A stretch of DNA of 32,000 nucleotides from NCBI RefSeq assembly GCF_022440805.1, contig NZ_JAKNTK010000001.1:3988344-4020343 (forward strand), written 5' to 3'. The DNA is from Holdemania massiliensis (GTDB taxonomy: Bacteria; Bacillota_I; Bacilli_A; Erysipelotrichales; Erysipelotrichaceae). How positions within the stretch are numbered: position 1 is the stretch's first letter; the number at the start of each line of letters is the position of its first letter. The position numbers were made by a program, and so were the translations under genes. The notes under the pieces were generated by a model. The model was not told where the DNA came from. It made no database searches and saw only the letters and a program-made list of their open reading frames with translations. Positions 4,602 to 25,028 of the stretch are shown piece after piece.

Positions 4602-6512
4602 TTATTTCGCGGCGTTAGCTCCGGCAATTTTTCCGAAAACCATAATGTCCGCGATGGCATTGCCGCCGACACGGTTGCCGCCATGAATACCGCCGGTCAC
4701 TTCCCCCGCGGCATATAAACCTTGAATCGCTTCGCCGGCTTCATTTAAAACCTGAGCTTCCGTATTGATCGTCAGTCCGCCCATCGTATGATGAACGCTC
4801 GGTTTTTCGATAACCGCATAGTAAGGGGCGGTCTCAATTTTACTGCCGAAAACATTCTTTCCGAAATCCGGATCGTTTCCCGCGTCGACATACGAATTGT
4901 ATTTTTCAACCGAAGTTATCAGATTCTCGCTCGGACATCCGATTTGTTCAGCCAGGGCTTCCAGACTCTCTGCCTTATACAGAATTCCCTTTTCCACCAT
5001 CGCGTCGACCTGTTCCTGCGTTGCTTTGTTCTGCAGCGTTGGAATCATATTCTGATCGGCAATGTGGTAGAAAACGCCGTCGGTCTGACTTAAAGCCGCA
5101 CTGGCTAAGACATCCCGTTCCGCATATTCGTTGACAAAGCGATTCCCTTCCTGATTGACAAACATGTAATACTGACTCGGTACCAACAGGCCGTCCGCAA
5201 GCTGGCCGGTCACTGCACTGGCTGTCGGCATCAGCTGAACCATGCCCATGCCTGTCAGCGAAGCTTTTGCCTGCAGGCCAAGTTCAATTCCATCGCCGGT
5301 TGCCCCTGCAACATTGGTAGTTTTAATGCCTTCTGGAATCGCTGGCCAGTAGGTATTGTACTCTTTTACCATTTCCCCATTGGCGCCAAAGCCGCCGGTT
5401 GCCAGAATTACATTTTTCGCATGAATGGTTAAAGTGGATCCATCCTCTTTGCGGCAGATCACTCCGGTTACCGCATCTCCATCCAGAATCAGATCGGTGG
5501 CACGGGTGGCCAGATAAATCTTTCCGTTATGCGCTTCGATATACTGCTGCGCAGAAGTGAAAACGCCTTCCTTACTTTCGAAATTGTGTCCTCTTAACCA
5601 CAGAGATCCTACCGGGCTGGATAGTTCGTCACTGAGCGCCACTCCGACGGTATCCCCCAGCCAATGGAAGGTTTCCAATGATTTTTCACATAAGAGCTGA
5701 ACGAGATCAAAATCACCGCTGATTTCTCCGCCGCTGAGATCGGTTCTTTTTCCAGCCTGGTAAGTTTGAATGATATGCCATTCTGTCGAGTCAAATTCCT
5801 TGCTTGTATCCCCTTTAAGATATTCGCTAATCTGAGATTTTAAGGTTTTCAGCGTTTCCGCATAATCCCCGAACTCACTTTCATCATAGTCAAGCACAGC
5901 CTTCAAGGTTTCAACCTGACCATTGAGCGCATCCAGCTGATTTTCTAATTCCGGATCCGCGGCATTCATCGCAAAGCCGCTGGCCAGCGTGTTGCCGCCC
6001 AAAGCGGATGTTTTTTCAACAAGAATGACGCTGGCGCCCTGTTCCGCCGCACTGCTCGCTGCCGCAATGCCGGCTCCACCGCCGCCAACAACGACCACAT
6101 CGACAGTTTCTTCGGTATCTTCACCGGCTGCAGCTGTCAAATGAATTTCTTTCAGCGCTTCCACATCGGCACCTGCGGAAGTCAGTGCGGACGAGGCCGC
6201 TGCCAGAATCGCTTCACTGGTTATCGTGCAGCCGGAAACCGCGTCAATTCCCAATCCCTGGGCTTCCACAATCGCACTGGGAATCTTTTCAATGGCTGGA
6301 TCGGCAATGCCTTCTGTTTCCTGATGCGAGGTCACCGTGACTGATTCAATCTTATCCGCAGATAAAACAACTTCGACCGTCAGTTCACCATTTCGTCCCT
6401 CTGCCGCTGCGCTGTACGTTCCAGTTTTGAACGCTGATGTTTTCTTTTCCTGCGTTGTGCATCCCCCCAGAAGCAGCATCGCAGACAAGAACAAAACCGC
6501 TAGTTTCTTCAC
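4602..6512 (-). CDS. Extracytoplasmic lipoprotein flavin reductase 1: N-terminal FMN_bind domain + FAD-dependent fumarate/urocanate-reductase-like domain
   Basis: GTG start with AGGAGG 8 nt upstream. Lipobox LLLGGC. FMN_bind domain with DAVSGCTITS. FAD fold VDVVVVGGGGAGIAAASSAAEQGASVILVEK. C-terminal HHTMGG and GGNRVGGNA motifs typical of soluble fumarate-reductase flavoproteins. Confidence 0.85.
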   Translation of the reverse strand: MKKLAVLFLSAMLLLGGCTTQEKKTSAFKTGTYSAAAEGRNGELTVEVVLSADKIESVTVTSHQETEGIADPAIEKIPSAIVEAQGLGIDAVSGCTITSEAILAAASSALTSAGADVEALKEIHLTAAAGEDTEETVDVVVVGGGGAGIAAASSAAEQGASVILVEKTSALGGNTLASGFAMNAADPELENQLDALNGQVETLKAVLDYDESEFGDYAETLKTLKSQISEYLKGDTSKEFDSTEWHIIQTYQAGKRTDLSGGEISGDFDLVQLLCEKSLETFHWLGDTVGVALSDELSSPVGSLWLRGHNFESKEGVFTSAQQYIEAHNGKIYLATRATDLILDGDAVTGVICRKEDGSTLTIHAKNVILATGGFGANGEMVKEYNTYWPAIPEGIKTTNVAGATGDGIELGLQAKASLTGMGMVQLMPTASAVTGQLADGLLVPSQYYMFVNQEGNRFVNEYAERDVLASAALSQTDGVFYHIADQNMIPTLQNKATQEQVDAMVEKGILYKAESLEALAEQIGCPSENLITSVEKYNSYVDAGNDPDFGKNVFGSKIETAPYYAVIEKPSVHHTMGGLTINTEAQVLNEAGEAIQGLYAAGEVTGGIHGGNRVGGNAIADIMVFGKIAGANAAK

Positions 6513-6538
6513 ATTTATTTCCTCCTTGTGACTTTCCT

Positions 6539-6569
6539 ATCATAACCCCTACAACGTTTGTAAGGTCAA
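6539..6569 (-). promoter_or_regulatory. MerR-type promoter for reductase 1: TTGACC (6569-6564), 19-nt spacer, TATGAT (6544-6539), with an imperfect dyad in the spacer
   Basis: Minus strand reads TTGACCttacaaacgttgtaggggtTATGAT. The spacer counts to 19 nt. Dyad CCTTACAA-ACG-TTGTAGGG (6547-6565) has 7 of 9 pairs. The -35 overlaps the TGA stop of the MerR gene. Confidence 0.5.
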
Positions 6570-7375
6570 CCCCGTTTAATGACCGGAAGATAAAAACGAT
6601 GAAAGCGGTGATGTTCCTTATCCTTGTCCACACAGTTCCCCAACGTGTAACCCCAACAATCGCCATTCACTTCATAACCCTGTTGGCAAACATACTCCAA
6701 AGCCCAATGAAAATGCGCCAGATTCAGCCGGTCCTCCCCAATGGTTTCGATCAGAAACGAATAGGCCAAACAAGAGGGATGATTCTCATAATTCTCAAAC
6801 CAGGTTAACTGAAATTCCTGAAAATCGTTTAGCGTGATCCCAAAACCAAATTCGATTTGACTATTTTCATTCGTCCAGTCCTGTTTGCGGACGACCGGGG
6901 AAATAAAGGATATCGGAAGCAGATCTGTAAACTGGCGGTTTTTCTCACCGGCAATTTCACTCATGATGCGGGTTTTGGAAAACAGTGAGAACCGAACAAT
7001 CGCCGGGCTGGTTGTCAGCTCAATTTCATGAAGGTTTGCTTTAACGTTTTCCAGTTCCCGCCGGCAGTCAATCATACTTTGCAGGATCGCCTGCTGCTTT
7101 TTCAGGTTCCACTCGAAATCCTCAATTTTCTGCGAGAGCGTTTCTTCCAGCGTTTCCAATGAACCTTCATAGATCAGCGTCTTGATCTGTTCCAGCGGAA
7201 TATCCATGTTTTTATACCGCAGAATTCCGGTCAGAATCTCCACATCCTGCTGGGCATATTCGCGGTATCCACTTTCATTGCGCACTGGATGGATCAACCC
7301 CAGCCGTTCGTAATGCCGAAGCAGTTCATTGCTGACATTCATGGCGTTAGCGGTTTCTTTAATTTTACTCTTCAT
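6566..7375 (-). CDS. MerR-family transcriptional regulator with a roughly 170-aa C-terminal effector-type domain
   Basis: HTH region NVSNELLRHYERLGLIHPVRNESGYREYAQQDVEILTGILRYKNMDIPLEQIKTL, then a coiled-coil linker and a long C-terminal domain. I prefer the start at 7375 (MKSKIKE, GAAGGAGA RBS) over the ORF-track start at 7411. Confidence 0.8.
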   Translation of the reverse strand: MKSKIKETANAMNVSNELLRHYERLGLIHPVRNESGYREYAQQDVEILTGILRYKNMDIPLEQIKTLIYEGSLETLEETLSQKIEDFEWNLKKQQAILQSMIDCRRELENVKANLHEIELTTSPAIVRFSLFSKTRIMSEIAGEKNRQFTDLLPISFISPVVRKQDWTNENSQIEFGFGITLNDFQEFQLTWFENYENHPSCLAYSFLIETIGEDRLNLAHFHWALEYVCQQGYEVNGDCWGYTLGNCVDKDKEHHRFHRFYLPVIKRG

Positions 7376-7454: not shown

Positions 7455-7503
7455 GAATAAAAACCGTAAGGTTTTCTTAATTGGCTTAAGATCCCTTACG
7501 GTT
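7455..7503 (-). terminator. Rho-independent terminator after metG
   Basis: Minus strand: AACCGTAAGG (7503-7494), loop, CCTTACGGTT (7471-7462), then TTTTATT. Confidence 0.65.
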
Positions 7504-7522: not shown

Positions 7523-9451
7523 TCAGCGAACGATGCTGCCCACCGGTAAAGCTTCAACGGAAAGCACTTCGATCTGATCATCGCCCATACCGGCTAAAAT
7601 CATACCCTGTGATTCAACCCCGCGCAGTTTCGCCGGCGCCAGGTTGGTAATGACCACAACCTTCTTGCCAACCATCTGTTCCGGCTTGTAGCTGCCCGCG
7701 ATGCCGCTGACAATCTGCCGCGGTTTCTCCTCACCGATATCAATCTGAGAGACCAGCAGCTTATCGGCTTTCGGATGCTTTTCGCAGGCCAAGACCTGCC
7801 CGACCTTCATTTCAATCTTCGCAAAGTCGTCGATCGTGATCTGCGGCTTCGCTGGTTGGACCGGCTTGGCCGTTGCTTTCTTCGGCTGATCGGCTTCAAT
7901 TTTTTCCAGCATTTCTTTTTCATCAATCCGCGCGAACAGAATCTGCGGTTTCGGCGTAACGTGAATGCCGTCTTCCAGCTGGCCGAAAGTCAGTACGGAA
8001 GCATAGCTGCGCTGTTGGGTCTGGAGCTGATCCAGAATCGCCTTTGATGTTTCAGGCAGATAGCTTTCAAGCAGAATTGCCGCAATCCGAATGCATTCCA
8101 GCAAGTTATACAGCACCGTGGCCAGGCGGTCTTTTTTCGTTTCATCCTTGCCCAGCGCCCATGGCATGGTTTCATCAATGTATTTGTTGCTTCGGCGCAA
8201 GAGTGCGAAAATTTCATCCATAGCATCCGCCACCCGCAGCTCATCCATCTTTTTCTGAACATTGGCCGGCGTCGCTTTCGCCAGAGCGATCAATTCCTCA
8301 TCAATCGGGTCGCTGATCTGCGTCTTACGCACCAACCCGCCGAAGTATTTGTTGGTCATCGACAGCGTGCGGTTGACCAGGTTGCCGAGGATATTGGCCA
8401 GATCCGAATTAATCCGTTCAATCATCAGTTCATAGGTCACTGTGCCATCCTGGGCAAACGGCATTTCGTGAAGCATGATGTAACGTACTGCATCTACGCC
8501 GAAGTAGCGGACTAAATCATCCGCATAGATGACGTTGCCCTTGGACTTGGACATTTTGCCTTCTCCCACCAACAGCCATGGATGACCGAACACCTGCTTC
8601 GGCAGCGGCAGATCCAGCGCCATCAACATAATCGGCCAGTAGATTGTATGGAAGCGCAGAATATCCTTGCCGATCAGATGAACATCAGCCGGCCAGTAAC
8701 GCTTGAACTTTTCTCCATGATTGCCGTCGCAGTCAAAGCCTAAACCCGTGATGTAGTTGGTCAGCGCGTCAATCCAGACATACACGACATGCTTCGGATC
8801 AAAATCCACAGGCACACCCCAGGTAAACGAAGTCCGGGATACACACAGATCCTGCAGTCCCGGTTTAATGAAGTTGTTGATCATCTCATTTTTACGGGAT
8901 TCCGGCTGAATGAACTGTGGATTTTCCTCAATGTGCTTTAACAGCCGATCGGCATACTTGCTCATGCGGAAGAAATAGGCTTCTTCCTTCGCTTTTTCGA
9001 CCGGTGCGCCGCAATCAGGGCATTTTCCGTCCACAATCTGGCTTTCGGTAAAGAAGGATTCGCATGGTTTGCAATACCAGCCCTCATATTCAGACTTATA
9101 GATATCTCCCTGATCATAGAGCTTCTTAAAGATCTTCTGAACCTGACGTTCATGTTCCGGATCGGTTGTCCGCATGAATTTATCATAAGATGTATTCATC
9201 AAATCCCAGATTTCTTTAATCTGACCGGCCACCTGATCAACAAACTGCTGCGGTTCTACCCCGGCAGCTTTGGCTTTGTCCTCGATCTTCTGTCCGTGTT
9301 CATCCGTTCCGGTCTGAAAGAATACGTCATATCCCAGCATTCTCTTATAGCGGGCAATGCTGTCAGCCAGCACGATTTCATAGGTATTGCCGATGTGCGG
9401 CTTGCCTGAGGTGTAGGCGATGGCCGTTGTAATGTAATATTTTTCGCTCAC
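7523..9451 (-). CDS. metG: Methionine--tRNA ligase
   Basis: HIGN and KMSKS class-I motifs. Zn knuckles CKPCE...CPDCG. C-terminal EMAP/Trbp111-type tRNA-binding domain. GTG start at 9451 with AGGAGG 7 nt upstream. The track's longer ORF (to 9517) would run into the T-box terminator. Confidence 0.95.
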   Translation of the reverse strand: MSEKYYITTAIAYTSGKPHIGNTYEIVLADSIARYKRMLGYDVFFQTGTDEHGQKIEDKAKAAGVEPQQFVDQVAGQIKEIWDLMNTSYDKFMRTTDPEHERQVQKIFKKLYDQGDIYKSEYEGWYCKPCESFFTESQIVDGKCPDCGAPVEKAKEEAYFFRMSKYADRLLKHIEENPQFIQPESRKNEMINNFIKPGLQDLCVSRTSFTWGVPVDFDPKHVVYVWIDALTNYITGLGFDCDGNHGEKFKRYWPADVHLIGKDILRFHTIYWPIMLMALDLPLPKQVFGHPWLLVGEGKMSKSKGNVIYADDLVRYFGVDAVRYIMLHEMPFAQDGTVTYELMIERINSDLANILGNLVNRTLSMTNKYFGGLVRKTQISDPIDEELIALAKATPANVQKKMDELRVADAMDEIFALLRRSNKYIDETMPWALGKDETKKDRLATVLYNLLECIRIAAILLESYLPETSKAILDQLQTQQRSYASVLTFGQLEDGIHVTPKPQILFARIDEKEMLEKIEADQPKKATAKPVQPAKPQITIDDFAKIEMKVGQVLACEKHPKADKLLVSQIDIGEEKPRQIVSGIAGSYKPEQMVGKKVVVITNLAPAKLRGVESQGMILAGMGDDQIEVLSVEALPVGSIVR

Positions 9452-9472
9452 AAAAATTCCTCCTTTTTTATA

Positions 9473-9696
9473 ATAAAAAAACGTCCCTGAAAGGACGCTG
9501 ATTTCGCGCGGTACCACCTTACTTCATATCATTTCGATATGCGCTTGCTTCTTAACGCGAAGTCACGTCTTATCCTACGCTGTTCGGATAATCAGTTCCA
9601 AGACCATGTTCACTTTGATTTTCAGTCCTGCTTTCACCTGACCAGGCTCTCTAAATCTAAAATTTCAAAGCTACTCTTCTTTTCTCTACCTTTACG
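9473..9696 (-). promoter_or_regulatory. T-box leader (tRNA-sensing riboswitch), specifier AUG (Met), controlling metG
   Basis: Minus strand carries the T-box core GGTGGTACCGCG (9518-9507). Terminator CGTCCTTTCAGGGACG + TTTTTTT lies at 9499-9473. Stem I elements are AGAGA/AGTA, AGAGAG and a GGTGAAA distal loop. The specifier loop reads TGAAC-ATG-G, with ATG at 9607-9605. Confidence 0.85.
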
Positions 9697-9731: not shown

Positions 9732-9797
9732 GCCTTATTCTTTGCCATTCCTGCTTTTTTCTTACGTTTGTTTCACTACCTCTTCACTGATAAAGCA

Positions 9798-9806
9798 TGC
9801 TATAAT
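9798..9806 (+). promoter_or_regulatory. Extended -10 (TGcTATAAT) upstream of the prepilin-like gene
   Basis: TG at 9798-9799 and TATAAT at 9801-9806. No good -35 element. Confidence 0.3.
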
Positions 9807-9833
9807 GGTTATTACAGAGGCGAGGTTATAATT

Positions 9834-10640
9834 ATGAAAAAACAGAAGAAGCGTGGATTCACGTTAATTGAGTTAATTGTCGTCATTGCGATCCTGGTCG
9901 CTTTGTTATTAATATTGGTTCCAAGGTTAACCGGGTTCACTTCCACTGCAGCTGAGGTTCAGTGTCAGCAGACCCGCCAGAAGGTGATGGAGATGTATAA
10001 AGCCTATGAAATAAAAGGTGAACCTGTTTCCGCTAAGGATTTGTTAGCTAATAAAGATGATGAATATTTTATTTCTAAACCGCAGTGTTCTTCCGGTGGG
10101 GAATTGAGTGCTGTTGAAATCAAAGGCTTGGTAACTTTAATCCGTTGCTCCAAACATGGAAGCACGAACTCAGGAAATTTAGATACAACTCCTAAGGGGA
10201 TTCAGAGCGCAATGTTAGAATTCATGAATTTTTTACTAGACGAAAAAACAACCAATCCTAACATTATAAAAGATCTTACCGGGTTTCCTACTTTAAATAA
10301 TGACAGACTCCGAAATTTTATGAAAAATGAAATTTATGGCGGATCTTGGCCATCGTTAAGTGATGACATTGTCAAAGCTGCGAATCTGCCTGATGGAGAT
10401 TACAAGATACAAATCTGCTTCAATCATTATGGCTACGGCGACATCTCTCCTGAAAATGCAATTATCTTTGCATCAACTAGTGAAGCGAATGGAAATTGGA
10501 ACTATAATCTTATTTATGATCAAGATGAGAATTGTTGGTATACTGGCACCAAATCCTTCCCTATCAATAATCAAAGTTGGGCAGAAGTTAAAGAAAAAAT
10601 GGAAAAAAATGGTTGGAAGCCTGTTGAATATACCGAATAA
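9834..10640 (+). CDS. Prepilin-type N-terminal cleavage/methylation domain protein with a large uncharacterised C-terminal domain
   Basis: MKKQKKRG|FTLIELIVVIAILVALLL is a class III signal peptide, with G-1, F+1 and E+5. About 240 aa of non-pilin-sized C-terminal sequence with 6 Cys. Start 9834 is preferred over the track's 9768. Confidence 0.75.
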   Translation: MKKQKKRGFTLIELIVVIAILVALLLILVPRLTGFTSTAAEVQCQQTRQKVMEMYKAYEIKGEPVSAKDLLANKDDEYFISKPQCSSGGELSAVEIKGLVTLIRCSKHGSTNSGNLDTTPKGIQSAMLEFMNFLLDEKTTNPNIIKDLTGFPTLNNDRLRNFMKNEIYGGSWPSLSDDIVKAANLPDGDYKIQICFNHYGYGDISPENAIIFASTSEANGNWNYNLIYDQDENCWYTGTKSFPINNQSWAEVKEKMEKNGWKPVEYTE

Positions 10641-12478: not shown

Positions 12479-12714
12479 AACAAAACATCGAGGAACAGAA
12501 AAAGTAGTCAGAACAAAACCCCAGCGAGCTGATACAGAGTGGAAGGTCAGCGGTACTGATTCTGATGAAAACGCATCTGGGAGATGGCTTTCTGAAACCA
12601 GTAGGAAAGTCCGATTATCCGCGTTAAGGATCTGAGGAGGCCGGACAGACCGGCAATTAGAGTGGCACCGCGAATCCATCGTCTCTAGCTTAGGCTGGGG
12701 ACGATTTTTATTTT
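12479..12714 (+). promoter_or_regulatory. T-box leader upstream of the OppA-family lipoprotein gene; specifier uncertain (CGC Arg favoured, AAC Asn possible)
   Basis: Stem I helices: CATC/GATG (12486-89 / 12583-86), CAGA/TCTG (12496-99 / 12576-79) and TCAGAA/TTCTGA (12508-13 / 12560-65). AGTA S-turn present. Specifier loop reads TGAAAACGCA (12566-12575). T-box core AATTAGAGTGGCACCGCG at 12655-12672. Terminator ATCGTCTCTAGC/GCTGGGGACGAT plus T-run at 12678-12714. Confidence 0.75.
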
Positions 12715-12865
12715 CCCTAATGGGTTCTGGAAAGGAGTGAGAGGATGATCCAGATAGTACAGTTTCAAGTTGACAACCGAAATCGCCCGACCCATCATCC
12801 CGAGAAGCGTTACCGACGATGCTTGCTTAATCCAGATGCTTCAAACTCAAGAAAGGAAAATGAAC

Positions 12866-14494
12866 ATGAAAAAAATCAATTTACTTCTCTGCGCAGGCTT
12901 ATTAATGCTAAGCACTGCCTGCTCTTCTAACCCTTCCTCATCTACGCCAACTCCGCAAACAGCACAGAACGCCATTACCGTTGCCGTCGGCAGCCAGATC
13001 ACCACGCTGGATCCCGGCTACAATACAGAAACTGTCAACAATTACATTTTAGCTCATACCGTTTCCAGCCTGATGACTAAAGATGAAAATGGCACCGTCA
13101 TTCCGGAGCTGGCTGAGGAATACACCGTCAGTGAAGATGGACTGACCTACACCTTAACATTAAAGGAAGGTCTGACCTGGAGCGATGGTCAGGCCCTGAC
13201 CTCCCAGGATTTCAAATACGCGATTTTACGAAATCTGACTTATGGAGCCGATAATTCCTGGGCGATCTACAATCTGACAACCTATCTCAAAGGCGCGGAA
13301 GAGATTGCTTCCAACACCGATCTGGATGCCTCCGCGATTGAAATTGAAGGTGTTGAAACACCGGATGATTCCACGCTGGTACTGAATTTAAAACAACCGT
13401 GTGCTTTCTTTATCAATCTGTTGACCGGCAATGTCTGGGCACCGCTCAGAGCTGACTTTGCGGATGCGCATGATTCAACTTGGGCATTAAAGCCTGGTTA
13501 TCCAAGCATTGGAGCCTATCAGCTGGCCGAATGCAATGAAAATGAAAAAGCGGTGATCGTCAAAAATGACAGCTATTACAAAGCTGACGAAATCACGCTG
13601 GATCAAATCACCTTCCTCGTCATGCCTGACAGTGATGCTCAATCGTTAGCTTATAAAAACGGTGAAATTGATGTGGCACTGAATGTTCCTGTTGATGTCG
13701 GCGTCAATTATCCAAATCAGAATGAAGTCTGGAATATCCCTTCACCTACTTCTTATTTCATCGCTCTCAATTCCGGAGCGACTGCCCCGGAAGCACTGAA
13801 AGAAGCAAAAGTGCGCAAAGCGCTGGCGATCTCGATCGACAAACAGGCTCTGGCTTCAACCTTGGGACCGGAACAATACTACCAGGCACTGGGCGGCTAT
13901 GTTCCTGCCGGTCTGAATGGGATTGATCAGGATTTCCGGAAGGAAGCCGATGCGAAAGGAACAATGCAGGCCTATGATCCAGAACAAGCGAAAGCCTTGT
14001 TAAAGGAAGCCGGCTATGATGAAACTCATCCGCTGAAAATCAAATATAAGTATTCTTCTTCCTTTATCCATTCCGATGTTGCTCAGATTCTCGAAGCGAT
14101 GTGGAAAAATATCGGGATCGACTGTGAATTGGAAGTCGTTGAATCCGGTGTCTTCTATAATCAGATTGACAATGGTGATTTTGAACTTTCCCGTTATGGC
14201 TACACGGCCAGTGATGATCCTTCTCAGTTTCTGACCTTGTGGACAACCGGTCAGCAAGTGGTAGCCGCCGTGGATGATCCGGCTTATGACAAAATGGTAG
14301 CCGAGGCCGCGGCACTGATTGATCACACCGAATATATGGAAGCTCTGCACGCGGTGGAAGAATATCTTGTGGAAGAACAGGCTTACGTCATTCCGCTGTT
14401 CAGCTACAACACGCCGATTCTTAAAAGTGAAAAGATCCAGAATGCGACAAAGAAGGGAACAACGCCATTCTACGGTTATGTCACTTTGCAATAA
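12866..14494 (+). CDS. ABC-type peptide/nickel substrate-binding lipoprotein (family 5, OppA/DppA-like), orphan
   Basis: MKKINLLLCAGLLMLSTAC lipoprotein signal peptide; about 540 aa, typical family-5 SBP length and sequence character. Start 12866 (or 12860) is preferred over the track's 12770, which would lie in the leader region. Confidence 0.8.
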   Translation: MKKINLLLCAGLLMLSTACSSNPSSSTPTPQTAQNAITVAVGSQITTLDPGYNTETVNNYILAHTVSSLMTKDENGTVIPELAEEYTVSEDGLTYTLTLKEGLTWSDGQALTSQDFKYAILRNLTYGADNSWAIYNLTTYLKGAEEIASNTDLDASAIEIEGVETPDDSTLVLNLKQPCAFFINLLTGNVWAPLRADFADAHDSTWALKPGYPSIGAYQLAECNENEKAVIVKNDSYYKADEITLDQITFLVMPDSDAQSLAYKNGEIDVALNVPVDVGVNYPNQNEVWNIPSPTSYFIALNSGATAPEALKEAKVRKALAISIDKQALASTLGPEQYYQALGGYVPAGLNGIDQDFRKEADAKGTMQAYDPEQAKALLKEAGYDETHPLKIKYKYSSSFIHSDVAQILEAMWKNIGIDCELEVVESGVFYNQIDNGDFELSRYGYTASDDPSQFLTLWTTGQQVVAAVDDPAYDKMVAEAAALIDHTEYMEALHAVEEYLVEEQAYVIPLFSYNTPILKSEKIQNATKKGTTPFYGYVTLQ

Positions 14495-18659: not shown

Positions 18660-20174
18660 ATGAGGGGCGTTATGACACAGACTGAATCTTCTTTATGCCG
18701 TGTTTTTCTGGTTGACGATGATCTTCTTGTACTGGATGATCTGCGGGATCTGATCGATTGGGAAGCAGAGGGCTTCATTCTGACAGGCACGGCGGGCAAT
18801 GGGGAACAGGCACTGGAACGGCTGGCTCAGACACCCGCAGATCTGGTGCTGGTGGATATTGAAATGCCGCGGTTAAACGGGCTGGCTTTCATCCGGCAGC
18901 TGCGGCAACAGGATCCGCAAATCCAAACGCTACTTCTGACAGCGTTTTCCCGTTTTGATTACGCCCGCGAAGCTGTGTCACTGGGTGTGTATAATTATAT
19001 CCTCAAACACGAACTGACCGCAGAAGGACTGCTCGAAAATCTGCGCGGCATGCGGGAGCAATGGGAACGCCAGAGAACTTCCCGTTATCTTGATGAACAG
19101 GCGCGGTTTCGACAGCTGCTTTTTACCGGAGATCACATTGACTTTTCCGACGTTGGATTCAGCAGCCCACATTCTGGAATCGGTTTGGTTTGTCTGCGGC
19201 GTCTGCCTTCGCTCCATGAATTGATCTCTTTCAAAGCAACAGAAGAGACCGACCACCTTTTTGCGCAGCTTCAGCAAGCCCTGCAGCCCTTGCGCAAAAC
19301 CGCTGTTTTTCTTGTTTTTCTCCAATCCGTCAATGAATGCTGGATCGCTGTGGAAGCCGATCCTCAGCTTGCCAGTGTTCCGTATGAATTTTGTACTGCG
19401 CTGCGAAAGAGCTTGGAAAACATTCTGGCTCCGATGGGGCTGTTGGTCAGTCCGGTTGCGCAGGATCTGTCTGAACTGCGCCGATTGTATCATGAGATGA
19501 ATGAGCGCCAGAATCAGTTGTTTTATTTTCCTAAACAGCGCATCACCCTGCTTCATGAATGTCCGGATGCCATGCCGTATGAGGCTTCGGATTGGGAAAT
19601 TCAATTAGCTCAGATCGATACTCAGGCTAGCCTGTGCCAAACGTCAACGGCGTTTTTAAACGCTCTCGATCAGGCTCGGCCGGCTTTGCCGCAGATTCTT
19701 CTGGCCGTGAAGCTCCTGCTTCAAAAGCTTCAGAAGCGAACAAGGATCAGTGAATTGTCTGAGGATTTTTCAGCATGGAAAACAATCTGTACCTATCCGG
19801 CTTTATGCGACTTTGTCCGCCGTTGGCTGCCGCTTCAGCCCCAGCCGCAGACCAGCCGCAAAACCGACTTTATGATCCGCTACCTGCAGGATCACTGTGC
19901 CGATGAAAACGTTCTTGACGATCTTTCGCAGACCCTGCAGATGAATCGCGAGTATTTAAGCAAACTGTTAAAGAAGGAAACCGGCATGACCTTGGCGCAG
20001 ATGTTGTTGGATCTGCGGCTGCAGAAAGCAATGCGGCTCTTGAAACAAAAGGATCTCAAGATTTATGAGGCAGCCCGGCAATGCGGATTCCACTCCAGTC
20101 AATACTTTGCGATCGTATTTTATAAAAAATATCATGTTTATCCCAGCGATGTATTAAAGGAGCCGTATGTATGA
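18660..20174 (+). CDS. Response regulator with C-terminal AraC-type HTH (YesN-like)
   Basis: REC domain (VFLVDDD ... LVLVDIEMPRLNG ... LLLTAF). Long linker. C-terminal AraC HTH (ARQCGFHSSQYFAIVFYKKYHVYPSD). Confidence 0.9.
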   Translation: MRGVMTQTESSLCRVFLVDDDLLVLDDLRDLIDWEAEGFILTGTAGNGEQALERLAQTPADLVLVDIEMPRLNGLAFIRQLRQQDPQIQTLLLTAFSRFDYAREAVSLGVYNYILKHELTAEGLLENLRGMREQWERQRTSRYLDEQARFRQLLFTGDHIDFSDVGFSSPHSGIGLVCLRRLPSLHELISFKATEETDHLFAQLQQALQPLRKTAVFLVFLQSVNECWIAVEADPQLASVPYEFCTALRKSLENILAPMGLLVSPVAQDLSELRRLYHEMNERQNQLFYFPKQRITLLHECPDAMPYEASDWEIQLAQIDTQASLCQTSTAFLNALDQARPALPQILLAVKLLLQKLQKRTRISELSEDFSAWKTICTYPALCDFVRRWLPLQPQPQTSRKTDFMIRYLQDHCADENVLDDLSQTLQMNREYLSKLLKKETGMTLAQMLLDLRLQKAMRLLKQKDLKIYEAARQCGFHSSQYFAIVFYKKYHVYPSDVLKEPYV

Positions 20175-21940
20175 AGCGTAAAGACATCAAGACCTGGCTT
20201 GTATCGCTGCTTCCGCCCCGACTTTCGGTAAAGCTGGCCGCTGCGCTGGGGGCATTGGTTCTGGTGATGACCAGCGTCACCAGCTTTGTCACTTATCAAT
20301 ACTTCGCTCACATCCTGACCCAGGAAAATCTGAAAAAAGATGCGCAGGTGCTCCGCCAGAATGCCCAGCAGCTGGAAGGCTTTATCCGTGAACTGACAGT
20401 TCTTTCCCGCAGTCTGTTGGCCGATCCGCAGCTGCAGCAGTTCTGCCACACCGCGGATCCGGACTATTTCCAAAAGGAAGCGGCAGCGGATTTATTAACC
20501 CGGACGCTGTCGGTTCAGGATCTGATCCACAGCGCGCTGATTCACCACGAAGATCAGGTGCTCTGGAACCTGTATCCGCTTGATCATACCTTTGATCCGC
20601 TTGCCCAATCTCAGAAAACAAGACAGCTGACTGGATTTACCGAAGCCTTCCTGCTGAAATCCGGCGTGGAACAGCTGCGTCTGGCGGCTTATCACACGCC
20701 GATTGCCGATTTAGTTCATCCCCAGCAGAAAATCGGAGAGCTGTGGATTCTGCTTGATCTGCGGCAATTGGAAACGATGATTCAGGCATGGAATCTGCCT
20801 CAGCAGGAAATCACGCTGATGCAGAATCAGACGGTGCTGATCGCTTCCCCTTCTGGCCTGAATGAACAACAGCTGAACAAACTGGCCAACGATCAGCCCT
20901 TTCCCTCGCTCCAGTCGGTTCGCGGCGGATTTCTGCTGAGCAGTCCGGTGGCCGGTACGCCTTATACCTTATTCTCTTATCGATCCAAGGCCGCACTGCG
21001 CGGACAGGCGTCCTTTCTGATCGTGTTTTTCAGCTTGTTCTCGCTGCTCATCTTCCTTTTATTCGTGATGATTCTCTCCCGCATTGTCCGTCAGTTTACC
21101 GCACCGTTATCCACTTTGACGGCCGGCTTGAATCAATTTGCCGCCGGTGATCTGAACACCCAGATTACCCTGCACAGTCACGATGAGCTGGAAATGCTGG
21201 GCGATACTTTCAATTCGATGGTTGTCCGCATACATGAGCTTTTAGATCAGGCTGTTGAGGATGAAAAAATCCGCAGGAAGCTGAAATTTGATATGATGAT
21301 CTCCAAAATCCATCCGCATTTTATCTACAATACGTTAAACTCTGTCATCGTGATGGCTCGCCGAGCTGGGAATCAGGAGGTTGTCGATATGGTGCGTGCC
21401 TTAATTCTGATCCTTCAGGATGGCATGGCGGTGCATGAGGACCTGTTGATGGACACCATCGAACGGGAACGAGCGGTCATTGAGGCGTATGTCACCATCC
21501 AGAATTATCGCTACAAGCAGAAATTCAGCGTCGTTTACGACATCGACCCAGCGCTGAACGAGCTGCTAATCGCCAAAAACATTCTCCAGCCGTTAGTTGA
21601 AAATGCGATTTTCCACGGCATCATCCCCAAAGAGGGACCCGGACAGCTGACGCTATCCATTCAGCGCCAAAACGATCAGCTGCATGTCGAGGTTCGTGAT
21701 GACGGCGTGGGACTGAGCGCCGAACTGGCCAGCCGCATTGAACAAGGCTCCGCCGCCCTGAATGCTCATCGGGAAGCCGAGAAAAACAGTGTCCATGCGA
21801 TTGCGCTGGTCAATGTCTGCGAACGGCTGGAATTCCTTTACGGCGATCCTGTGACGCTGCACGTCGAAAGTGAGCTGGGGAAGGGTTCCGCATTCATCTT
21901 TGATCTGCCGATCATAGAGAAAGGAGGGCTCCCACAATGA
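20171..21940 (+). CDS. Sensor histidine kinase (YesM/LytS-type His_kinase + HATPase) with two TM helices, a roughly 250-aa extracytoplasmic sensor domain and HAMP
   Basis: HPHFIYNTLNSV phospho-His region. N-box QPLVENAIFHG. G-boxes DDGVG and GKGSAF. HAMP after TM2 (FLIVFFSLFSLLIFLLFVMIL). ATGA overlap with the RR gene. Confidence 0.9.
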   Translation: MKRKDIKTWLVSLLPPRLSVKLAAALGALVLVMTSVTSFVTYQYFAHILTQENLKKDAQVLRQNAQQLEGFIRELTVLSRSLLADPQLQQFCHTADPDYFQKEAAADLLTRTLSVQDLIHSALIHHEDQVLWNLYPLDHTFDPLAQSQKTRQLTGFTEAFLLKSGVEQLRLAAYHTPIADLVHPQQKIGELWILLDLRQLETMIQAWNLPQQEITLMQNQTVLIASPSGLNEQQLNKLANDQPFPSLQSVRGGFLLSSPVAGTPYTLFSYRSKAALRGQASFLIVFFSLFSLLIFLLFVMILSRIVRQFTAPLSTLTAGLNQFAAGDLNTQITLHSHDELEMLGDTFNSMVVRIHELLDQAVEDEKIRRKLKFDMMISKIHPHFIYNTLNSVIVMARRAGNQEVVDMVRALILILQDGMAVHEDLLMDTIERERAVIEAYVTIQNYRYKQKFSVVYDIDPALNELLIAKNILQPLVENAIFHGIIPKEGPGQLTLSIQRQNDQLHVEVRDDGVGLSAELASRIEQGSAALNAHREAEKNSVHAIALVNVCERLEFLYGDPVTLHVESELGKGSAFIFDLPIIEKGGLPQ

Positions 21941-23217
21941 AGGCCTATCGCATTGTTTTTCTTCTGCTGACCCTGACGCTGGCGCTTTTTCTCTATAGCG
22001 CTTTTTCCGCCCCACGTTTGACGCCGGAACCCTCGCAGAAAGAAGTGATTACAGTCTGGGGCTGGGATGATTTTCTGCCGGATGCGTTTGCGGAGTATCA
22101 GAAATCTCATCCCGATGTCGCGCTTAATTACACCGTCGTTGAAAAAAGTGAATATCTGCAGCGCTTTAAACTGGCGCTGGCACTCAATCAGCCCTTGCCG
22201 GACATCTGCATTCTCGAAAGTGAAACGCTCGACGGCATCAACGGAGCCGAGCTGTTTATCGATCTGGAAGCCTCTCCGTATTTCCTGCCGCGGCAGGAAG
22301 TTCTGGAATTTCGTCTGGCTCAGTTTGAAAATGAACTCGGTCATCTGTGGGCTGTGCCGGCTACCTTATCCGCCAGCGGCGTCGCTTATAACCGCACTGT
22401 GGCCCAGGCGTTTCTGGCAACCGAGGATCCAGTTCAGGTGGGAATTGTTTTCAGCAGCTGGGCCGATGTTATCAGCAAGGGCATGAAGTTCAAGGAACAA
22501 TTCCCAGATCGGGCCATGTTTGCCTCACTGGAAGATGCCGCCGTGATGTTGTTTGGACAATCACGCACGCCGTATATTCAAGACAACACGCTGCTTCAGC
22601 CCTACCGTTTCCTCAATGCCTTCCAGATTCTCGACGCCCTGCAGGAGGCTGGCCTGGTCTTCTCCCTGCAGCAGTATTCGCCGCAGTGGATGAACTCGCT
22701 GGAAACCGATCAGGTGTTTTTCTATCCGTGCTCACTCTGGCTGATGTCCATGGGTATTTTTCATACCGGACAAGCCTGGGGCTTTACCCGTGCGCCCAGC
22801 GGCAGCTTTGCCTGGGGCGGTACCGTCTGGGCGATTCCCAAAACCAGCACCCATGCCGCGACAGCCTGGGAATTCATGCAGACAGTGCTGCTTTCGCCTT
22901 CCGGTGCGGCTTATGCCAAAAATCATGGCACCGGAACTTTGATCAGCTACAGTCCGGCTTACAATGAAGAGGGATATTCAGATCTGATCATGGAGGATTT
23001 CGGCGGTCAGAATATCGGCAAGATGTATTTGGATCAGATTTTCCCGGAAGTTCAGACCCGTCCGGCGGGAGAGAACGAAGCGCTGCTGAAAGAAGTTTAT
23101 CTGCAGACTGTCCGAGCGATGATCGGCATGCCGGAAATGAATGGCGAACAGGCTTATGCCCTATTCTTAGAGCGGCTGCATCAGCGGCTGCCGGATTTAC
23201 AGGAGGAACCCGCATGA
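21937..23217 (+). CDS. Extracellular solute-binding protein (family 1 sugar-type SBP), N-terminally anchored, with no cognate transporter genes
   Basis: 426 aa. Hydrophobic N-terminus without a lipobox Cys. ITVWGWDDF and WGGTVWAIPKTSTHAATAWEFMQ are typical family-1 SBP blocks. ATGA overlaps with the genes on both sides. Confidence 0.75.
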   Translation: MKAYRIVFLLLTLTLALFLYSAFSAPRLTPEPSQKEVITVWGWDDFLPDAFAEYQKSHPDVALNYTVVEKSEYLQRFKLALALNQPLPDICILESETLDGINGAELFIDLEASPYFLPRQEVLEFRLAQFENELGHLWAVPATLSASGVAYNRTVAQAFLATEDPVQVGIVFSSWADVISKGMKFKEQFPDRAMFASLEDAAVMLFGQSRTPYIQDNTLLQPYRFLNAFQILDALQEAGLVFSLQQYSPQWMNSLETDQVFFYPCSLWLMSMGIFHTGQAWGFTRAPSGSFAWGGTVWAIPKTSTHAATAWEFMQTVLLSPSGAAYAKNHGTGTLISYSPAYNEEGYSDLIMEDFGGQNIGKMYLDQIFPEVQTRPAGENEALLKEVYLQTVRAMIGMPEMNGEQAYALFLERLHQRLPDLQEEPA

Positions 23218-24947
23218 ACTTGAAGAAAATCATCCCCGCGCTCTGTCTGATTTTGTGCTGCGGCTGCGCGTCTTCCTCCACTCATTGTCAAATTGACGGT
23301 TATTTAGGCCCGATGGAAATTGAAGTGCTGAGTGAAGATCAGCGCATTACCGCGATTCAGGTACTGAGCCATGCGGATACGCCGGAAATCGCAGATCCCG
23401 CCCTGGCCGACTTCATCGCTCAGATTTTAGAAAATCAAACGCTGCAGATCGATGCGGTCAATGGAGCAACCCAGTCCTGTGAAGCACTGCGCAAAGGAAT
23501 TGAGCGCTTGTTGAAACGGCAGGGTTTTACCGAGGAACAACTCTATGCCGCGCGCCCCCAAACGCCGCCTGTCCAAGAGGAAGCCTCAGAAATCTATGAT
23601 GTGGTGGTCATCGGCGGAGGCGGAGCTGGCTTAGCCGCGGCCGTCAGCGCCGCACGCCAGGGGGCTTCCGTTGCGGTGCTGGAAAAAGCCGACAGTCTGG
23701 GCGGCAATACAATCCGGGCTACCGCCATGTATAACTGTGTGGATGATCAGCTCCAGCATCCTTTGCAGATCATGGACAGCGAACAGCTTTTCTTTGAAGA
23801 AACCTTCAACGGCGGTCATCAGAAAGCAAAACCGGAGCTGGTGCGGATCCTGACTTCCCAAGCCGATGAGGGTCTGGCGTTTTTGCAGGAGCTGGGGTTA
23901 GAAATCGACACGGTGATCGACAACTGTTTGGGCGGCGAGCATGCCCGCGGTCATTATTCCAAGGCTCATAACGGTACAGATTTCATTCAGGTTTTGAGCG
24001 ATGCCTGTGTTCGGGAACAGGTTGACTTTTATCTGAATACACGGGCGAAAGCGCTGATTCAGGAGGGTTCTGCCGTGATCGGAGTCCAGGCTGTCCAGCA
24101 ACGTCAGCCGATCCAGTTCCAAGCGCGGCAGGGTGTGATCTTAGCGACTGGCGGCTTCGGCTACAATGTGGAAATGCGGATGCAGTATGATCAGAGCCTA
24201 ACCGGGGATCTGCTTTGCAGCAATACGCCGGGAACAGTGGGCGATGGACTTATCATGGCGCACGCCATTGGGGCTTCACTGATCGACATGGAATATATAG
24301 AGCTTTATCCGATGGCGGATATTTACGACGGCGGACTGCACAACTCCATTCCCAATGCGATCAATCATGGGATTTTGGTCAACACCGAAGGCGATCGGTT
24401 TATCCGTGAGGATGCCGGCCGGGATGAACTGGCCCAGGCGATCCGGGCGCAGGATCACGGGTTTGTCTATTCCCTCGCCGACGATGATTTTTCCTCGCTG
24501 CAGGAAGACCGCGACTTCCTGGAGGGGCTAGTACTGATGGGACAAGTGGTCAAAGCCGATACGTTGGAAGACCTGGCTTATCAGCTGGAACTGGATTTCA
24601 AGGTTCTGGAAGCAGCGGTGAATGACTACAACCGCAGTGTTGAACAGCAGTACGATCCCCGCTTTCAGCGCAGAACGTTAATCAATAAAATTGATCACCC
24701 ACCATTTTACGCCACCGCCAAGACCGTCACTGTGCATCACACGCTGGGCGGTGTTGAAATCAATGAACAAGCCCAGGTTCTCGATCAAAAGAAACAGCTG
24801 ATTCCCCGGCTTTATGCGGCCGGCGAGGTGACCGGCGGGATTCACGGCGCCAATCGCCTGGGCGGCAACTCGTTTCCTGACTGTATCGTCTTCGGACGGA
24901 TTGCCGGAACGGAGGCTGCCGCTCAGCCGCCGCGGCCAATATCCTGA
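23214..24947 (+). CDS. Extracytoplasmic lipoprotein flavin reductase 2: N-terminal FMN_bind + FAD-dependent fumarate/urocanate-reductase-like domain
   Basis: Signal peptide with an atypical Cys-rich lipobox LILCCGC. FMN_bind domain with DAVNGATQS (23451-23477). YDVVVIGGGGAGLAAAVSAARQGASVAVLEK. HHTLGG and GANRLGGNS motifs. Confidence 0.85.
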   Translation: MNLKKIIPALCLILCCGCASSSTHCQIDGYLGPMEIEVLSEDQRITAIQVLSHADTPEIADPALADFIAQILENQTLQIDAVNGATQSCEALRKGIERLLKRQGFTEEQLYAARPQTPPVQEEASEIYDVVVIGGGGAGLAAAVSAARQGASVAVLEKADSLGGNTIRATAMYNCVDDQLQHPLQIMDSEQLFFEETFNGGHQKAKPELVRILTSQADEGLAFLQELGLEIDTVIDNCLGGEHARGHYSKAHNGTDFIQVLSDACVREQVDFYLNTRAKALIQEGSAVIGVQAVQQRQPIQFQARQGVILATGGFGYNVEMRMQYDQSLTGDLLCSNTPGTVGDGLIMAHAIGASLIDMEYIELYPMADIYDGGLHNSIPNAINHGILVNTEGDRFIREDAGRDELAQAIRAQDHGFVYSLADDDFSSLQEDRDFLEGLVLMGQVVKADTLEDLAYQLELDFKVLEAAVNDYNRSVEQQYDPRFQRRTLINKIDHPPFYATAKTVTVHHTLGGVEINEQAQVLDQKKQLIPRLYAAGEVTGGIHGANRLGGNSFPDCIVFGRIAGTEAAAQPPRPIS

Positions 24948-24974
24948 ACTTGAACAGAATGTCCGGTTTTTAAC

Positions 24975-25003
24975 TCGACCTCAACTTGTGATTTTTTTAT
25001 AAT
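24975..25003 (+). promoter_or_regulatory. Weak candidate internal promoter TCGACC-17-TATAAT ahead of reductase 3
   Basis: Perfect -10 at 24998-25003 but a poor -35. No terminator seen between reductases 2 and 3. Confidence 0.25.
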
Positions 25004-25028
25004 TTCCTTATTCAAGGAGGAAAGAGAA

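Follow-up and report, generated by a model that had tools for sequence, protein, structure and literature searches.

The closest described counterparts of the locus analyzed here are the metal-responsive MerR regulators, for which the mer operator (TCCGTAC-N4-GTACGGA) and its spacer rule have been established (PMC1526738), and the multidrug sensors BmrR and EcmrR, whose mechanism of activation is known from cryo-electron microscopy (PMC7722741, PMC8113463; reviewed in PMC9909328). On the side of the enzymes, gut Erysipelotrichaceae such as Holdemania possess tens of respiratory-type flavin reductases, for which substrate-specific induction is the main de-orphaning route, and in H. filiformis the genes of these reductases are found together with those of two-component systems or cytosolic helix-turn-helix (HTH) regulators, with the acceptors acting as inducers (Little et al., bioRxiv 10.1101/2022.12.26.521950). 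Here we describe a two-gene locus of Holdemania massiliensis, located in a stretch of 32,000 nucleotides of contig NZ_JAKNTK010000001.1 (the whole stretch is hereafter called the window), in which a gene for a MerR-family regulator, referred to as merR, is followed by the gene of a lipoprotein flavin reductase (reductase 1, R1), and in which the gap between the two genes contains a putative promoter with a 19-nt spacer and an operator dyad.

We consider it likely that this BmrR-like one-component regulator switches the promoter of the adjoining reductase gene by DNA distortion of the MerR type, the ligand being most likely the acceptor of the reductase. Since the two-gene module and the operator recur in about ten distant lineages, the switch is regarded as real and conserved, and very probably it works in the ordinary MerR way.

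The promoter and its operator in Holdemania and in distant lineages

The elements of the locus are as follows.

6566-7375, minus strand: merR-family regulator gene, from ATG 7375 to TGA 6568-6566 (included), 269 amino acids (aa); read from the open reading frame (ORF) and the ribosome-binding site (RBS)
7 nt 5' of ATG 7375, minus strand: RBS of merR, GAAGGAG, kept in relatives
6566-6568, minus strand: regulator stop codon TGA, forming bases 2-4 of the -35 hexamer (context GGT-TGA-CC)
6564-6569, minus strand: -35 hexamer TTGACC, read directly
6545-6563, minus strand: spacer of 19 nt, read directly
6539-6544, minus strand: -10 hexamer TATGAT, read directly
6546-6566, minus strand: operator, a 21-bp pseudo-palindrome ACCTTACAA-ACG-TTGTAGGGG with its centre at 6556, which is spacer base 8
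6547-6565, minus strand: dyad core CCTTACAA-ACG-TTGTAGGG, as noted in the sequence-only reading, within the operator
6530-6534, minus strand: transcription start at ~6532, predicted solely from the standard -10 to +1 spacing
6521-6526, minus strand: Shine-Dalgarno sequence AGGAGG, 12 nt 3' of TATGAT and 8 nt before GTG
6510-6512, minus strand: start codon GTG of the reductase gene, read directly
4602-6512, minus strand: R1, lipoprotein flavin reductase of 636 aa with FMN_bind and flavocytochrome-c-type FAD_binding_2 domains
7457-7503, minus strand: hairpin after metG with a 10-bp stem AACCGTAAGG/CCTTACGGTT, a 22-nt loop and a T run, read directly

The gap between the regulator stop and the reductase start is 53 nt (6565-6513). 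The promoter had been proposed in an earlier, sequence-only reading of the window, and the coordinates of that reading all proved correct to the base when the minus strand was re-read. The dyad core (6565-6547) has 7 of 8 arm pairs, or 7 of 9 if counted as in that reading. It should be noted that the standard promoter scan missed TTGACC-19-TATGAT because it allowed only spacers of 16-18 nt, and it was replaced by a scan over 15-21 nt. The outer bases of the dyad overlap the -35 hexamer and its centre lies 2 bp promoter-proximal of the spacer midpoint, a geometry that appears to match those of the metal-responsive MerR regulators (PMC1526738) and of the BmrR and EcmrR transcription complexes (PMC7722741, PMC8113463); from this match we infer the standard MerR cycle. 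No second copy of the operator, which would be a sign of other regulon members, was found within 3 mismatches in the 32-kb window.

The same locus was analyzed in two close relatives, H. massiliensis AP2 (L001) and a metagenomic Holdemania (L007). In both of them the stretch from the regulator stop to the reductase start is identical to that of the window (56 of 56 nt, the operator stretch being 100% identical), whereas identity falls to 84-86% at the third codon positions of merR and of the reductase gene and to only 58-68%, with indels, in the 79 nt that separate the metG hairpin from the merR ATG. The intergenic promoter is thus the best-conserved stretch of the locus, and it appears to be under purifying selection. 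A scan of a genome collection for further relatives returned only H. massiliensis, and an exact-sequence look-up of the window's own protein returned no record.

DNA was recovered for 12 further lineages beyond the window. The metagenome scan gave mostly HTH-only matches, the full-length relatives among them being only L007, L008 and L009, and the remaining loci were reused as controls. A word-indexed homologue search with a 20-sequence profile gave nothing new, and tblastn of the regulator C-terminal domain against plasmids gave no match. The spacer is 19 nt long and TTGAC is invariant in all 13 lineages. Eleven promoters, that of the window and those of ten further loci, share a TTACAA-type operator, TTACAA-N3-TTGTA. 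They represent ten regulator lineages, since the regulators of L002 gap 1 and L005 are a 73%-identical pair; apart from this pair, the pairwise identity of the corresponding regulators is 24-49%. Aligned on the -35 element, each of these promoters reads TTGAC(C/T)-19 nt-TAnnn(T/C), and the consensus of the eleven is TTGACc TTACAAnnnTTGTAagGtt TAtaaT. The operator consensus across the family is TTACAAnnnTTGTAagGt, with 6-9 of 9 positions symmetric about spacer base 8 in the 11 promoters; written with its flanks, it is TTGACy-TTACAA-N3-TTGTAArGt-N2-TAnnnT. When the dyad was searched for freely, its centre fell on spacer base 8 in 7 of 7 promoters. The view that an over-long spacer holding the operator dyad denotes a MerR-type promoter, put forward in the sequence-only reading, is therefore supported by spacing, register and operator kept across regulators of 24-49% identity, and the dyad is conserved upstream of the orthologous reductase genes, a point which that reading had proposed to check.

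The arrangement of the TTACAA-type loci is given below, together with the identities of the reductase to R1 and of the regulator to MerR of the window.

L002 gap 1 and L005: tandem, TGA inside TTGAC
L002 first cassette: reductase 76%, regulator 38%
L088: tandem, TGA inside TTGAC; reductase 80%, regulator 36%
L089: tandem, TGA inside TTGAC; reductase 67% (gene cut by the contig end), regulator 33%
L090: tandem, TGA inside TTGAC; reductase 80%, regulator 36%
L091: tandem, TGA inside TTGAC; reductase 52% (61-aa fragment only), regulator 36%
L008: tandem, stop codon TAA ~15-26 nt 5' of the -35 element; reductase 53% (gene cut by an insertion sequence, IS), regulator 29%
L093: tandem, stop codon TAA ~15-26 nt 5' of the -35 element; reductase 53%, regulator 32%
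L094: tandem, stop codon TAA ~15-26 nt 5' of the -35 element; reductase 59%, regulator 30%
L092: divergent, relation of the stop codon to the -35 element not applicable

Both the co-directional layout and the overlap of the stop codon with the promoter had been called unusual. Within this regulator family the tandem layout is in fact the rule, being found in 10 of the 13 lineages. As for the overlap, it recurs in six lineages and is absent from the others; as a compaction it is recurrent and retained, but not obligatory and not peculiar to one locus. In the divergent locus L092 (140-300), the 19-nt-spacer promoter with its TTACAA-type operator is accompanied by a terminator-like hairpin after merR.

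Three more distant members (L002 gap 2/L087, L006 and L009) keep the 19-nt spacing and the dyad centre, with unrelated half-sites. Their recognition helix starts with KPTL, PDTV or RDTL, and that of the TTACAA-type regulators with S-x-E-L; the altered helix start and the altered half-sites together would have the look of a changed DNA specificity. In L009 (2700-2821), a divergent promoter with a 19-nt spacer drives an OYE-type (Oxidored_FMN+Pyr_redox_2) enoate reductase gene. The contig of L002 (2357-8148; also L003 and L004) carries two MerR-to-flavin-reductase cassettes in tandem, each with its own 19-nt-spacer promoter and with different dyads. The regulator of the second cassette is ~21% identical to that of the window and its reductase is 28% identical to R1, and the pair looks like duplicated, mutually insulated modules of sensor and enzyme. 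Additionally, a single operator half-site, GTTGTAAAGT, with no full dyad, is located in L002 at ~2272-2290, ~65 nt 5' of the first merR start, next to a promoter-like site TTGATT-18-AATAAT; it may be a chance occurrence or a remnant.

In the hexamer scan over 15-21 nt, the 19-nt pair was the unique best candidate in 15 of 17 loci. As controls, the 100 nt following the stop codon were examined in 70 unrelated MerR-family loci: 60 had no promoter-like site, one had a 19-nt pair and six had 20-nt pairs, two of the latter (L058 and L068) with convincing mer-like dyads. These counts indicate that the scan does not yield 19-nt matches by default. The promoters of L058 and L068 are of the type TTGACT-20 nt, lie ~40-60 nt past the regulator stop and contain the dyads CCGTAC-CACG-GTACGG and CTGTAC-TCGG-GTACAG, respectively; thus, layouts with a regulator followed in tandem by a promoter exist in other MerR subfamilies, though they are uncommon.

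The regulator, the reductase and the two-gene module

The regulator matched the Pfam families MerR_1 (PF13411; 3.8e-13, 49.8 bits against a cut-off of 21.6) and MerR (PF00376; 1.1e-10, 41.6 bits against a cut-off of 28.2), and residues R20, Y22, E23, Y37 and R38 are invariant in the alignment of its family. Neither Pfam nor NCBIfam gave a family for its C-terminal domain. A model obtained with AlphaFold2 from an alignment of 8 sequences (predicted local distance difference test, pLDDT, 87.5; predicted template modelling score, pTM, 0.71) consists of the HTH, a helix of 41 residues (73-113) and an alpha/beta domain (116-269), which correspond to the following parts of the gene.

7172-7366, minus strand: winged HTH, residues 4-68 (Pfam PF13411)
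7037-7159, minus strand: long helix, residues 73-113, predicted antiparallel coiled-coil dimerisation helix (DSSP on the AlphaFold2 model)
6569-7030, minus strand: predicted GyrI-like (BmrR-type) effector-binding domain, residues 116-269 (Foldseek)

A Foldseek search against the PDB matched full-length BmrR (3iao; E 2.2e-11, TM 0.59) and also full-length EcmrR and BrlR, and the C-terminal part matched the C-terminal domain of EcmrR (6wl5, 6e-5) and SbmC/GyrI (1jyh, 1.5e-4). The model superposes on BmrR, EcmrR, CueR, CadR and MtaN. Moreover, a profile made from 20 members of the family could be aligned with EcmrR from position 3 to 265, and one of 20 relatives gave a match to Pfam Cass2, a member of the GyrI-like clan, at 8e-5. 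The suggestion of the sequence-only reading that the C-terminal domain is of the BmrR type is therefore right at the level of the fold. Conservation is highest in the HTH (46-59%) and lowest in the coiled coil (16-22%), and the C-terminal motifs WGxTxGN and HxRxHRxYxP persist across the family. The domain is rare: a search of 1.84 billion proteins gave only 22 representative clusters at E<=1e-3.

The HTH, the predicted coiled coil and the palindromic promoter with its 19-nt spacer point to a protein belonging to the MerR family, which would act by DNA distortion. By its predicted structure the regulator shares the fold, and probably also the mechanism, of BmrR, yet it is not an activator of multidrug efflux, its target being a flavin reductase. 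The mechanism and both protein folds are already known; the regulators form a small, rare and previously undescribed subfamily of the MerR/GyrI-like kind. None of the papers searched describes this subfamily, its operator, or a MerR-type promoter for a flavinylated extracytosolic reductase.

R1 starts with a lipoprotein signal, MKKLAVLFLSAMLLLGGC, with the lipobox LLGGC, and contains FMN_bind (PF04205, 5.7e-15) and FAD_binding_2 (PF00890, 4.1e-61) domains; it also matched NCBIfam TIGR01813 (flavocytochrome c) with 330.9 bits against a cut-off of 285.45. The closest solved structures are the Shewanella fumarate and urocanate reductases, and an alignment with Fcc3 and UrdA shows that R1 retains the catalytic Arg as well as the His/Arg carboxylate clamp. 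The retained residues would be the equivalents of R402, H504 and R545 of Fcc3. By its lipobox, domains and conserved catalytic residues, R1 is thus classified as a flavinylated extracytosolic reductase of the flavocytochrome-c type. At the sites specific for fumarate or urocanate, R1 has Met (QLMPT) and Pro/Ser (LLVPSQYY); these are presumably the positions of His365/Arg381 in Fcc3 and Tyr373/Asp388 in UrdA. The active site would therefore argue, in an indicative way, against fumarate or urocanate as the substrate, and, because the clamp is kept and the specific sites are changed, the substrate is probably another unsaturated carboxylate. A comparison of R1 with CirA, CirC and CirD of Little et al. 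by way of the published mutant residue numbers allowed no assignment either way, and the supplement of that work contained no Cir entries. R1 also has ~67 residues (residues ~190-258) between blocks that align with Fcc3 and UrdA, where these have ~15, and this insertion in the FAD domain is common to the orthologues in L002 and L008.

Wherever the downstream gene could be read, it encodes an orthologue of R1, with 53-80% identity over the full or near-full length (52% for the fragment in L091). Orthologues are present in Holdemania, in genome record CP000724.1 and in several metagenomic lineages, whereas the two other flavin reductases of the window are just 30-33% identical to R1. The reductase is far better conserved than the regulator (53-80% versus 30-38% in L002, L088, L090, L093 and L094), and the operator is nearly fixed. 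Since the flanking genes differ between lineages, the unit consists of the regulator, the promoter and the reductase. In L008 (3903-6461) the orthologue of R1 breaks off after 450 aa and an IS transposase (rve, HTH_21) comes next, the regulator and the promoter being intact; this reductase appears to have been disrupted by the insertion.

The proposed switch and alternative explanations

According to the proposed mechanism, a regulator dimer would sit on the operator at all times. The -35 and -10 elements are good hexamers at a suboptimal spacing of 19 bp, and without ligand this spacer would place them out of phase and leave the promoter silent; a ligand bound in the GyrI-like domain would lead to kinking and untwisting of the spacer and to realignment of the hexamers, and the reductase gene would be turned on from ~6532. 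Because the promoter lies after the regulator gene, induction would have no effect on the level of the regulator and there would be no autoregulatory loop; the regulator itself would be made from a weak upstream promoter or by read-through from metG. The ligand would most likely be the electron acceptor that the reductase itself uses, or a closely related compound, and would probably belong to the alpha,beta-unsaturated carboxylates. The acceptor is favoured because of the one-to-one pairing of the regulator with one reductase orthologue and of the substrate-specific induction of Holdemania reductases, and a substrate of the unsaturated carboxylate class is supported by the MerR regulator adjacent to fldZ and by the pairing with an OYE-type enoate reductase in L009 (see below).

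Several points weigh against this proposal. The promoter motif and the dyad are not statistically significant from this window alone: TTGAC-N20-TANNAT occurs once, with 0.39 occurrences expected and at least one in 36 of 100 shuffles, and the dyad was equalled or beaten in 171 of 2000 spacer shuffles (p~0.09). The weight of this copy comes from its position, in a 53-nt gap directly 5' of a gene, and from its conservation elsewhere. In L093 and L094 the 19-nt pair only ties with other candidates in the naive hexamer scan. No Pfam GyrI-like family matched the window regulator, for which only the HTH was recognised, and the GyrI-like assignment comes from a structure predicted from an 8-sequence alignment, the other four AlphaFold2 models having a pLDDT of 65-72. 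No terminator separates merR from the reductase gene, and some co-transcription is therefore likely. Finally, activation, as well as a cytoplasmic small molecule as the signal, is what we infer, and the reductase lies outside the cell whereas the sensor is cytoplasmic, with no transporter conserved in the module.

This last point bears on the alternative that survives best, namely that the mechanism is as proposed and the signal is something other than the reductase substrate, such as the reaction product, a redox or stress cue or, as for BmrR, a broad range of xenobiotics. The enzyme works outside the cell with no importer conserved in the module, and promiscuous multidrug sensing is typical of GyrI-like MerR regulators (BmrR, EcmrR, BrlR). 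Against it, across lineages the regulator pairs one-to-one with just one reductase orthologue, itself well conserved, the reductases of H. filiformis are induced selectively by their acceptors, and the motifs WGxTxGN and HxRxHRxYxP persist in a regulator that diverges much faster than the enzyme. We regard such a signal as rather unlikely.

Less probable still, with a small chance in our estimate, is that the regulator binds the operator only as a ligand-released repressor, or as a roadblock to read-through, and that no activation by DNA distortion takes place. Some proteins of the MerR fold are pure repressors (GlnR, TnrA, CarH and HspR were among the matches), and an operator overlapping the -35 element and the spacer would occlude RNA polymerase. 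However, with its spacer strictly kept at 19 nt the promoter would be a poor one once derepressed; BmrR and EcmrR, the nearest matches in structure, are activators; and a conserved over-long spacer whose dyad is centred like those of merT, copA and bmr marks a promoter of the activator class (PMC1526738, PMC8113463).

The locus could also be a simple read-through operon, transcribed only from a promoter 5' of merR, with TTGACC-19-TATGAT being fortuitous. The missing terminator between the genes and the expectation of 0.39 such motifs per window would agree with this. On the other hand, 56 of 56 nt are kept while neutral sites have diverged by ~15%, the same 19-nt promoter with its operator is found in at least ten lineages, and L092 and L009 use the same type of promoter divergently, where read-through is impossible. 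Moreover, no recognisable promoter is found 5' of merR: no sigma-70-like -35/-10 pair with at least 8 of 12 matches was detected within 150 nt 5' of merR in the three Holdemania sequences, a search there for the regulator's own promoter gave no convincing candidate, and the stretch where an operon promoter would have to lie, poorly conserved and with indels, is the worst conserved part of the locus. We consider this explanation very improbable. Slightly more improbable again is that the dyad is an RNA hairpin (acting on merR as a terminator or attenuator, or serving as a 5' element in the reductase mRNA) instead of a DNA operator: the arms pair in RNA at 8 of 8 positions with one G-U (-8.2 kcal/mol), but this energy is no different from that of shuffled sequences (z -0.96), no U tract follows the dyad, no comparable hairpin is present in L008, L002 gap 2, L006 and L009, no Rfam family matches at the dyad, the dyad lies 5' of the predicted start and would thus be absent from the reductase mRNA, and the fixed register to both hexamers is needed by an operator and not by a hairpin.

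The preferred explanation thus remains a ligand-controlled switch of the MerR type. It differs in its sensing logic, as the sequence-only reading had stated, from the set at 18.6-23.2 kb of the window, where a response regulator, a histidine kinase and a solute-binding protein precede two paralogous reductases. Since no terminator separates the two genes, it may be speculated that the bound regulator limits read-through from merR. Going further, one could suggest that the rare BmrR-like clade is devoted, as a cytoplasmic sensor, to a single extracytosolic reductase orthologue that is widely conserved, that the module moves or persists as an indivisible unit, and that the bound regulator both blocks read-through and activates on ligand binding. 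The stop codon locked into the -35 box and the operator sharing bases with it are features of such indivisibility, and the regulator changes at 2-3 times the rate of the enzyme, the operator meanwhile being fixed; we nevertheless put this suggestion forward only tentatively, as it is rather doubtful in its full form. If it is true, the operator consensus would be a handle for de-orphaning the substrate by a reporter and for predicting induction in gut metagenomes.

Neighbouring genes, significance and comparison with described systems

The metG hairpin, 63 of 68 positions of which are identical in L001 and L007, is a probable terminator of metG and forms the module's upstream boundary. The window contains two T-box leaders (Rfam RF00230, 122 and 116 bits), one at 9488-9695 on the minus strand, 5' of metG (7523-9517), and the other at 12482-12689 on the plus strand, 5' of the gene of an SBP_bac_5 peptide-binding protein (12770-14494). 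As merR lies directly after the metG hairpin, T-box-controlled read-through might add to its expression. An ORF on the plus strand (9768-10640), which adjoins the metG T-box region, has a type IV pilin or pseudopilin N-terminus, KKRGFTLIELIVVIAIL. At 18660-26819 (plus strand) lie genes for an AraC-type response regulator, a Cache/HAMP histidine kinase and a solute-binding protein, and after them those of two further lipoprotein flavin reductases, one of which has FMN_bind at the C-terminus instead of the N-terminus.

For one conserved reductase orthologue, the present analysis gives a specific regulator together with its operator and promoter. With a defined pair of sensor and operator, the electron acceptor could be revealed by a reporter fusion or by screening ligands on the purified 269-aa regulator. 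The enzymes to which the subfamily is tied are of the respiration type, whereas it is drug efflux that is controlled by the GyrI-like MerR regulators known so far. The proposed mechanism fits the MerR paradigm throughout, and the value of the locus lies in annotation and testability, with no conceptual surprise.

Compared with described systems, the reductases of H. filiformis studied by Little et al. (bioRxiv 10.1101/2022.12.26.521950) come from the same genus and belong to the same enzyme class as R1, but that work names no MerR regulators, promoters or operators, the word "MerR" having zero occurrences in its text and supplement. A MerR regulator flanks the gene of the 2-enoate (cinnamate) reductase fldZ (bioRxiv 10.1101/2025.11.25.690607), and in L009 a distant member of the present regulator family (22-24% identity over the full length) is divergent from an Oxidored_FMN+Pyr_redox_2 enoate reductase. 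As in the window, a MerR-family regulator is paired in the fldZ locus with a reductase of alpha,beta-unsaturated carboxylates, the probable substrate class of R1; the fldZ and L009 enzymes differ in being cytoplasmic and of the OYE type, and L009 has a divergent layout and an unrelated operator.

The promoter PmerT of Tn21/Tn501 resembles that of the window in its 19-bp spacer, in an operator overlapping the -35 element with its outer bases, and in a centre lying 1-2 bp promoter-proximal of the midpoint. The operator of CueR at PcopA has the same 19-bp-spacer geometry. Unlike the window regulator, MerR and CueR are metal sensors with short C-termini containing Cys, and their genes are either divergent, with autoregulation of merR, or unlinked; the window locus is in tandem and has no operator 5' of the regulator gene.

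BmrR with the bmr promoter (Bacillus subtilis) and EcmrR (E. coli) share with the window regulator the predicted three-part architecture and the fold. The bmrR gene lies downstream of bmr, whereas the window regulator gene lies upstream of its target and ends inside the -35 box. In structural alignments the identity is 14-17%, and the window regulator lacks a Pfam GyrI-like match. A 19-bp spacer with a palindrome is common to these promoters and to that of the window, and the activation by DNA distortion described for BmrR and EcmrR (PMC7722741, PMC8113463) would apply here as well. The target is an efflux pump in those systems and a respiratory-type extracytosolic flavin reductase here, and the pairing of the regulator with one enzyme orthologue suggests a specific rather than a multidrug ligand.

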